DNA of 64,000 bases, taken from contig OX638158.1 in the NCBI GenBank assembly GCA_951804945.1, positions 31,806,001 through 31,870,000 of the forward strand, written 5' to 3'. Of the stretch, positions 52,996 through 55,111 are shown in pieces. This DNA is from Podarcis cretensis. Lineage: Eukaryota. The translations under genes and the position numbers were made by a program. Each line of letters starts with the position of its first letter. Position 1 is the stretch's first letter. The notes beneath the pieces were generated by a model. That model searched no databases. It was not told the origin of the DNA and worked only from the letters and a program-made list of their open reading frames with translations.

Positions 52996-54229
52996 GTAAA
53001 AATACACCTTCTCAACAATGCTGGAATAAAGTTTGCAGGACTGTGTGTGCATGTATAGACACTTGTGTATACAAATGCCTACAACTATAAACATACATGT
53101 ATGTGCATGTATACCATGGGTTCACAGAATTGCCATTCGGTTGGCATATATGGTATTTTCTCCTAACTTGCCATCCTGAGAATCCTAGTTCTCACATTTC
53201 TAAAGTTCTTACATTTCTAGCTTTTACAGCAATGATGAAAAGCTAGGAGACGTGTAGGCAGCATCTGGTAAAACCTAGGACAATAACCTGAGGGCTGAGC
53301 AAGACTTGAGCTTCTAGGGGCGCTGACACTATACTAAACACAACAACTTACATTTTTCCAAAATGCTCTGAGCACATAAAATAGGGTATTATTTCAGTAG
53401 AACTTGCAATACTGTAGGTTGGGCCAGGTTAGTTCATTAACATCTGTTAAGGAAAGAGATTCCACAAGCTTTATTCTACTGTGGATGTATCGATGGTTCA
53501 CCGTCTTAGCTGTGTCTTCTACAAGAAGAAAACACTAGATGCACTTAATGAGGAAACCCCCAGAAAAACCTGTGCATTGGTACGGGTCAGAATCATGGTT
53601 GTATATTTAGGATCACTGTGTAAGTTCAGAGTTGCTGCTGACATTTCATATTCACCTGCATGGTAGTGCAACATGTTGCTGGTTTTTTCCCCCAGCAATA
53701 ACAATACAAAGCTGCTTTTAGTTTGAGATCATCTTCCATCAGCAAAAGAGGTTCAGTTGGTGGGAATGGGGGACAGAGCCTTTTCTGTGGCAGGTCCCAT
53801 TATAAAATTACCTTCCTTAGGGAAGTTAGACTGGTTCATCCGTGATGACTGTTAGGCAAGCAGTGGAGACTTTTAATAGTTTTTAATTGGAGGCTGTGGA
53901 TTTTAATTCTACCCTTTTTGGTTTTCAACGCTCTGCTTTAATTCTATTACTGTTTAGTTTTCTCAATTTGGTTTTGTAAACTGCCTTGGCAGCCCTCATT
54001 AATAAAAATACCTGCATTAGAAACAAAGATTACTGACCTAGCTGAATAGCCACAGCATGCTACACTGGTGTGACACTGTTTGAGCAGTGGCAGATCTCAC
54101 CTTGCCTAAAGTGTGGGTCAGGATAGGGCTCACAGGAGCATCTCAAGGCCTATCAATCTTCTCAAGGCAAGCAGCTACTCAAGCCACTGGAGAACTGATT
54201 TCAATGTGATGCCTCATTAAAAGGCAAAC

Positions 54230-55052
54230 TGTCAGAGCTGCCTCTAGGTCCCAGCTCACAGAGGACCAACGCTAGGCTGTCGTAATGTACAAAAGTCTTT
54301 ATTGAAGTTCAATTTCCATTTCAAAGCCGCAGCGCGCAGCCCTACGTCTTAAACCCTAGATCGGCAAAGTCCCGTCTGAATCTCCTCCCCTCTGACACCA
54401 GTTTAAGATCCTAGCCCTGCTCCACCTTTTCCGCTGCTCTCTTCTCTGGGTCCTCCTGCCCGCTGGGGCATTCCCCTTTCTGGACTCTTCCGACGCTGAG
54501 TCGCTTAGCTCCTCCCCCTCCCTCCGGCGGGCTTTAGGACCCGGTTCCCAATCCTCATTCTCTGCTGTCCCACGCTCCTGTACATTTGAACTTGCCTCTC
54601 ACGCCAACCCAGTGACCTTCCTCCTAACCGTTACACTACTTCTGTCACTGCTTCCCTCTTCCGGGATACTGGCCGGATCTGACCTCCCCTCCGTTGTCTG
54701 ACTCTCCGATGGAGGCGTGGTCAGCCCTGACTCCTCTCCTCTCCCTGCTGGGGGAGACGCTACTCCCGATACCTGTGACTCTTCCCCCCCACTATGCTCT
54801 GGTGGGGAAGCTGGTCCTGATTTCCAACTGCGGCTCTGGGAGTTCCCGCTGGCCCCTTGCTTCTGGGGTGTCCCCCTTGGGACCCCCCTTGCCCTGGCCA
54901 CCGGCGCCCCCTTCTGTGAATCTTCCGATTCGCTGGAGAGGCTCGTGGAATCCCTCGGTCCACTGTCCTCTTCTCCTACGCTCCCCTCGGATTCTTCCCC
55001 TTCGCTCTCCATCTCCTCTTTTCCCTGTGCCTCTGCTCCTGAGCCCCTGACA
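54230..55052 (-). mobile_element. Solo LTR (823 bp), probably Gypsy/Ty3 or retroviral
   Basis: TG...CA ends with short inverted repeats (TGTCAGAGCT / TGTCAGGGGCT); 5-bp target duplication CAAAC/CAAAT; minus-strand AATAAA at 54298-54303; GC-rich block in an AT-rich intron. Confidence 0.8.
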
Positions 55053-55111
55053 CAAATGTATGAATTGGGGCTAAGAATGGGGAGGTTCTTCCTACTGCAT
55101 AAACTCTCCAT

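Follow-up and report, generated by a model that had tools for sequence, protein, structure and literature searches.

Protein-coding sequence in the U3 part of a long terminal repeat (LTR) is known from nef, sag and bel, which are separate genes of env-bearing retroviruses. The window analysed here, a stretch of 64,000 nucleotides from the lizard Podarcis cretensis, contains a solo LTR with a reading frame that runs on the minus strand from position 55051 to a TAG at 54356-54358 and is interrupted by a single internal stop at 54599-54601. This raises the question of whether the frame encodes a protein and, if so, to which gene the protein belongs. A search of the lizard's own genome with the window LTR yielded 3,398 first-look candidates; 40 of them were scored, and the 39 besides the window copy are 97-98% identical. 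The PSIP1 exon of this genome shares 99% identity with Podarcis muralis and 97% with Lacerta agilis, which points to a lacertid as the likely host. The copy number, the LTR termini and the target-site duplication bear out the first-pass annotation, which had described a repeated solo LTR, and the frame, both stops, the first ATG and the AATAAA lie where it had placed them. The features of the locus are as follows:

54230..55052, minus strand: solo LTR of gypsy subfamily A1, 823 bp (sister copies mostly 826 bp), with the termini TGTCAG...CTGACA
55053..55057, no strand: upstream copy of the 5-bp target-site duplication, with one mismatch to the downstream copy
54225..54229, no strand: downstream copy of the 5-bp target-site duplication
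54356..55051, minus strand: LTR-encoded last part of Pol (integrase tail), continuous with PR-RT-RH-IN-chromodomain in two-LTR elements
54599..54601, minus strand: in-frame stop, a copy-level lesion present in 3 of 155 aligned LTRs
55010..55012, minus strand: first ATG within the LTR, without conservation in families C and D
54521..54535, minus strand: basic cluster KARRR, retained across close families
54395..54457, minus strand: Arg-rich terminal segment with the end ILNWC, the sole predicted helix of the tail (pLDDT ~52)
54378..55052, minus strand: predicted U3, 675 nt, entirely coding, its boundary placed from the self-primer
54402..54407, minus strand: TATA-like hexamer of putative function, ~25-30 nt upstream of the predicted start and overlapping the I-L-N codons
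54367..54377, minus strand: 11-nt self-primer and predicted RNA 5' end (start of R), which complements the sequence after the 5' LTRs and co-varies with it
54298..54303, minus strand: AATAAA polyadenylation signal

The parent element and continuity of the frame with Pol

The element from which the LTR derives has the features of Ty3/gypsy retrotransposons: two LTRs enclose gag and, after it, pol with the order PR-RT-RH-IN, the LTR ends are TG...CA, and a polypurine tract and a short target duplication are present. A 6.7-kb two-LTR copy encodes a Gag with a CCHC knuckle, followed by PR-RT-RH-IN-SH3. The integrase's C-terminal end carries a chromodomain, which matches HP1/CBX chromodomains in a profile search (E 1.5e-8) and chromodomains in a fold search (E ~0.005); the Pfam Chromo score is below the cut-off for family A, and one tryptophan of the HP1 chromodomain, which we take to be part of the methyl-lysine cage, is an arginine in families A, B and D.

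The reading frame of the LTR is the continuation of this polyprotein. In a natural copy, a single frame of 1,545 codons extends from the protease through the polypurine tract and U3 to the LTR stop, and the LTR contributes the last 232 codons of Pol. The earlier suggestion of a C-terminal extension of Pol or Env thus holds for Pol, with which the frame is continuous, and fails for Env, as no env frame was seen in the two-LTR elements examined. Five related groups (A-E) have the Pol-into-LTR layout in common; the number of LTR codons varies between families from ~102 to 232, the distant family E having a 412-bp LTR with ~102 Pol codons. With both junction sets ranked by likeness to a frameshifted copy, the spacing between chromodomain and LTR is in frame at 13 of 30 junctions, and the net indel is in frame at 11 of 26 junctions of another set that has some junctions in common with the first (a full alignment was missing for 4 of 30 loci). 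The out-of-frame junctions, which make up more than half of this older sample, carry small indels, mostly in scattered G-runs near the polypurine tract. Pol had also been considered to end 70 nt into the LTR, based on copy L031, but this copy has a G-run indel and the idea was rejected. In the young family D, a frame of 1,556 codons is present in 17 of 17 cleanly cut elements (two mis-cut rows were dropped). The same tail is found at the end of the UniRef protein P0007 of Podarcis muralis, and a search of 1.84 billion representatives gave 10 matches, four of which are without a name while the named ones are all from Podarcis. Homologues of the LTR frame share 52-64% identity across >90% of its length.

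The 5' LTRs are followed by an 11-nt sequence whose complement lies within the LTR, 148 nt from its 3' end. The complement was found in 14 of 16 LTRs with a following GTAAG, one miss being the flank of a solo LTR; primer site and complement change together in family C, and the complement is also present in family D. These patterns suggest that the element is likely self-priming and uses no tRNA primer. The primer of Tf1 is presumably the 5' end of its RNA, and the same is assumed here; the transcription start is therefore predicted at window position 54377, which would place all but the last few codons of the frame in U3. As the frame lies upstream of this start, a solo LTR should not transcribe it, which argues against the proposal that solo LTRs scatter an expressible reading frame through the genome. 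The copy in the window is an inert solo LTR, in which the coding DNA lies upstream of the site where transcription is predicted to start, and the parent is an env-less, likely self-priming chromodomain Ty3/gypsy retrotransposon. Self-priming is a described trait of the Tf1/sushi group (PMC6317226), and LTR end motifs of sushi elements are given in PMC3601003. As described in PMC6317226, Tf1/sushi elements such as Sushi-ichi and Amn share with the lizard element the CCHC Gag, the order PR-RT-RH-IN-SH3-chromodomain, 11-nt self-priming and TGT...ACA ends; however, compared with these descriptions the lizard element has an extra tail of ~390 residues past the chromodomain.

The assembly contains 4,252 exact A/B-type LTR ends; with the primer site following only 348 of them, most A/B LTRs are solo. 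A perfect 5-bp duplication flanks 52 of 155 LTRs, and the LTR frame is open in 21 of 38, 27 of 41 and 14 of 20 copies of the three families that were collected by DNA search. One element (L081, G000:C8:94,359,611-94,366,909) combines a family C 5' LTR with a family A 3' LTR, which are 82.5% alike; these mixed LTRs suggest recombination between subfamilies.

Selection on the frame and competing explanations

Given that the window LTR has a GC content of ~60%, a frame of this length could have arisen by chance in an LTR rich in GC and purines, and 24 of 2,000 dinucleotide shuffles indeed reach at least 230 codons in any frame. Chance would, however, explain neither the continuity with Pol and the homologues found nor the frame-specific pattern of changes, and the selection tests contradict it, leaving this explanation highly improbable. 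Changes at the subfamily level comprise 75 synonymous and 69 nonsynonymous ones and no stops, whereas private changes comprise 76, 167 and 8 (p = 1.5e-5), which corresponds to a depletion of nonsynonymous changes with a ratio of ratios of 0.4; since family B was partly collected by protein search, the private baseline is taken from the DNA-collected families only. Subfamily-level changes are distributed over the three codon positions as 46/46/97 in the frame versus 5/7/9 after the stop, with an enrichment of third positions in each third of the frame. In this frame the subfamily-fixed dN/dS is 0.25-0.43; the remaining two sense frames have 0.48-1.64, and the low value is mirrored by the antisense frame with common third positions. 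Shared indels are 3 and 63 nt long within the frame, and 1-nt indels are found beyond the stop. Several expectations of the first-pass annotation are thereby borne out, namely a dN/dS below 1, indels that keep the frame and an internal stop specific to few copies.

The substitution patterns indicate that the LTR frame is under purifying selection, with a constraint that is real but moderate. The last codons overlap the predicted promoter, and part of the conservation may therefore act at the DNA level. A comparison of families A and D gives a dN/dS of 0.31 for the LTR part and of 0.06-0.10 for the enzyme domains, and identity is 44-64% in the tail and 69-92% upstream of it. The tail, with a dN/dS of ~0.3-0.4, is thus under far weaker constraint than the enzymes and could be a loosely constrained spacer. 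It would also fit these values, as well as the low complexity and predicted disorder of the tail and its variable number of LTR codons, if the end of Pol were a mere passenger, whose read-through stays open because the RNA suffers from premature stops or from an extended 3' untranslated region. This is unlikely, since nonsynonymous changes are depleted and not stops alone, the enrichment of third positions extends over the whole frame, and short motifs are kept in distant families. Slightly less likely still is that the LTR frame also or mainly encodes a separate accessory protein, which would arise from an RNA that is spliced or starts internally, or through cleavage of Pol by the protease. 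A donor-like GTAAG follows every 5' LTR seen, an in-frame ATG is located in the polypurine tract just upstream of the LTR, and pyrimidine-rich, acceptor-like stretches can be seen by eye in the internal tail; however, the GTAAG overlaps the self-priming site and the upstream ATG belongs to the polypurine tract, so both have other reasons for conservation. Furthermore, the first ATG within the LTR is missing from 20 of 21 family C copies and from the D-type protein and is therefore probably not a start codon, and the Pol frame is unbroken in intact copies. An accessory gene of the nef, sag or bel type, as had been proposed, is accordingly not supported: the lizard frame is fused to pol, and the element is env-less. 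We therefore consider it very likely that the frame is genuine, under selection and a part of Pol.

The tail beyond the chromodomain

The part of Pol that follows the chromodomain is a low-complexity, predicted disordered tail of ~390 residues, 60% of which is encoded by U3. AlphaFold2 models the chromodomain, ~360 low-confidence residues and, close to the end, a single basic helix. Pfam yielded no family for the LTR frame, the ESM Atlas no usable match for the tail, and PDB sequence and fold searches matched the chromodomain only; the resemblance to Rev or Tat proposed in the first-pass annotation found no counterpart in these searches. Two short motifs recur. The internal portion of the tail, outside the LTR, contains an FxGF motif. 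In 11 of 12 tails it is located 69-70 residues past the chromodomain anchor, and in the twelfth at +116; family E carries it at both positions. Ahead of the motif come a short hydrophobic segment and ~8 linker residues that are acidic or Ser/Thr. In PMC9987994, TND-interacting motifs, which are ligands of LEDGF/HRP2, are described as a short helix, an acidic or Ser/Thr linker of 8-16 residues and FxGF. The sequence layout around the lizard FxGF fits such a motif, but the monomer model shows no helix there. D/ExExFxGF is given as the LEDGF-binding consensus in PMC8022399, FxGF also being mentioned in PMC11740969, and three of four distant relatives match this consensus. A prediction of the complex between the FxGF peptide and the IBD of lizard LEDGF returned 'no answer' (score 0.01) and carries no weight either way. 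The second motif, a basic run with an LLxW-like end, closes the tails of the close families, of the distant family E and of the protein P0017. The KARRR cluster may be the first half of a nuclear-import signal.

Taken together, the tail most likely serves nuclear import and chromatin tethering, which is the best overall explanation and one that we consider probable. The tail would be translated solely from the 3' LTR portion of the full-length RNA as part of Gag-Pol and would remain on the integrase, which the FxGF motif and the basic end would in turn tether to the chromatin of the host, so that the motifs of the tail may steer insertion. Targeting by C-terminal parts of the integrase has precedents in CRM (PMC3059260), Ty5 (PMC4700185) and Ty1 (PMC7459421). 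According to these sources, the copia-type yeast elements Ty5 and Ty1 have short integrase motifs by which integration is tethered to chromatin proteins of the host; Ty5 arrives at telomeric silent chromatin via the integrase targeting domain and Sir4 (PMC4700185), and the targeting domain of Ty1 is tied to an import-signal linker (PMC7459421). The layout closest to that of the lizard is found in the plant CRM group A chromoviruses, in which Pol likewise runs into the LTR, as described in PMC3059260; however, the lizard element is not a member of this group. CRM group A elements have a tRNA-Met primer site and a CR motif replacing the chromodomain and are centromeric (PMC3059260), whereas the lizard element keeps the chromodomain, is predicted to be self-priming and shows a bias to chromosome ends.

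Family D, telomeric arrays and possible targeting

A search with the protein P0011 led to family D, the youngest sister family, for which 101 scored matches were 99% identical to the query. Among 74 matches on chromosome-scale contigs, 37 are located within 100 kb of an end (0.19 expected). The 728 LTR ends of family D, 363 of them followed by the primer site, correspond to ~365 insertions, and 223 of these (~6 in 10) adjoin (TTAGGG)n arrays, with ~39% lying outside arrays. Perfect telomeric arrays account for 61,810 overlapping 24-mers or ~0.03% of the assembly, a figure to be read with the caveat that assemblies may under-count telomeres. When junctions are counted in any register, 120 + 106 are obtained, and those listed are nearly all in the GTTAG/CTAAC register; the telomeric insertions thus occur in both orientations and one register. 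The mapped ends of C7, C8, C10 and C13 are mosaics of intact 6.5-kb D elements and repeat tracts; both orientations occur at C7 and C8, and one element sits inside another, flanked by a duplication of its own. Copies at the same end differ by a mean of 14.6 substitutions (20 pairs, minimum 6) and copies at different ends by 15.1 (116 pairs); same-end copies are no more alike and behave as independent insertions, and local duplication as the source of the telomeric copies is unsupported. In contigs of four public sequencing runs, telomeric loose ends at both LTR edges were present in one, possibly the source sample, and none were listed in the other three.

Several further observations concern the arrays. 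At G000:C8:1-62,000 (L222-L228), the telomeric tracts between neighbouring D elements are just ~180-265 bp long, near one nucleosome repeat, and may reflect a minimum insertion spacing. At G000:C8:62,031 (L228), a 5'-truncated B element starts directly where the innermost telomeric tract stops, an arrangement that resembles the healing of a broken end by telomere addition. Clusters of D elements are also present in interstitial or sub-terminal telomeric arrays (G000:C2:4.62-4.65 Mb, C3:121.83-121.95 Mb and C1:27-75 kb), and many D-telomere junctions are found on the small unplaced G000 contigs C24, C25, C30, C32, C36-C39, C41, C43, C44, C47 and C49, which are probably unanchored chromosome ends. 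D-type LTR pairs lie ~3.5 kb apart, and not 5.7 kb, at G000:C1:3,704,627-3,708,177, C2:126,614,559-126,618,108 and C3:66,198,984-66,202,533; recurring at several sites, they are possibly an internally deleted, non-autonomous derivative of D. In the flanks of solo LTRs (L001-L191), target duplications prefer G/C as outer and A/T as central bases. The telomeric GTTAG/CTAAC matches this preference, which may set the register of insertion.

That the tail of family D itself directs integration into (TTAGGG)n by binding telomeric chromatin, be it shelterin or G-rich DNA or RNA, is possible, with the odds somewhat against it. Families with similar tails differ in their distribution, which counts against a simple link between tail and telomere. 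With the end pattern of families A, B and C, 2 telomeric junctions were found versus 4,252 A/B ends, both of them B-type and in the interstitial arrays of C2 and C3; turnover could have removed old telomeric insertions. On C1-C3, primer-linked A/B LTRs are within 1 Mb of an end in 46 of 79 cases (1.2 expected; counted by hand), but this holds for just 4 of the 40 closest copies of the window LTR, so the retention of full-length copies may contribute to the end bias. Family E is mostly dispersed, with 10 of 90 copies within 1 Mb of an end. The divergence between the tails of A and D would fit either a changed specificity or a relaxed constraint. An HxLxP motif in the last chromodomain helix, which we take to be TRF-binding-like, was rejected as the telomere determinant: telomeric and non-telomeric families both have it.

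Compared with known telomere-associated elements, family D differs in its destination and in its class. Ty5 inserts into Sir4-marked chromatin near telomeres (PMC4700185), whereas family D inserts within the (TTAGGG)n array itself. The elements described as inserting into canonical telomeric repeats, which are TRAS/SART, MoTeR, FoTeR, Zepp, Gil, Athena and Tx1_Acar of Anolis, are all non-LTR elements in the accounts of PMC10088271, PMC12857005 and PMC6410037. Their likeness to family D lies in the interspersion with canonical repeats; however, they mostly have a fixed orientation per family, whereas family D is an integrase-using LTR element, is found in both orientations and is not confined to telomeres. 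A literature search that covered few subscription papers found no account of such a tail, nor of any LTR element located in the TTAGGG arrays of a vertebrate.

The LTR in the window combines a promoter, an integrase attachment site and protein-coding DNA, thereby providing an animal parallel to the plant CRM elements. In family D, ~60% of the copies are located in vertebrate telomeric repeats, for which no LTR counterpart was found in the literature searched. Telomere structure in this lizard is thereby altered, with one end containing intact 6.5-kb elements ~200 bp apart. The close families, with arrays, subtelomeres and dispersed sites as their different destinations, form a natural comparison for the recognition of telomeres by an integrase. 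If the tail indeed drives the targeting of family D, this would be a telomere-targeting LTR retrotransposon of a vertebrate, which turns chromosome ends into mosaics of elements and repeats, and an animal counterpart of CRM.
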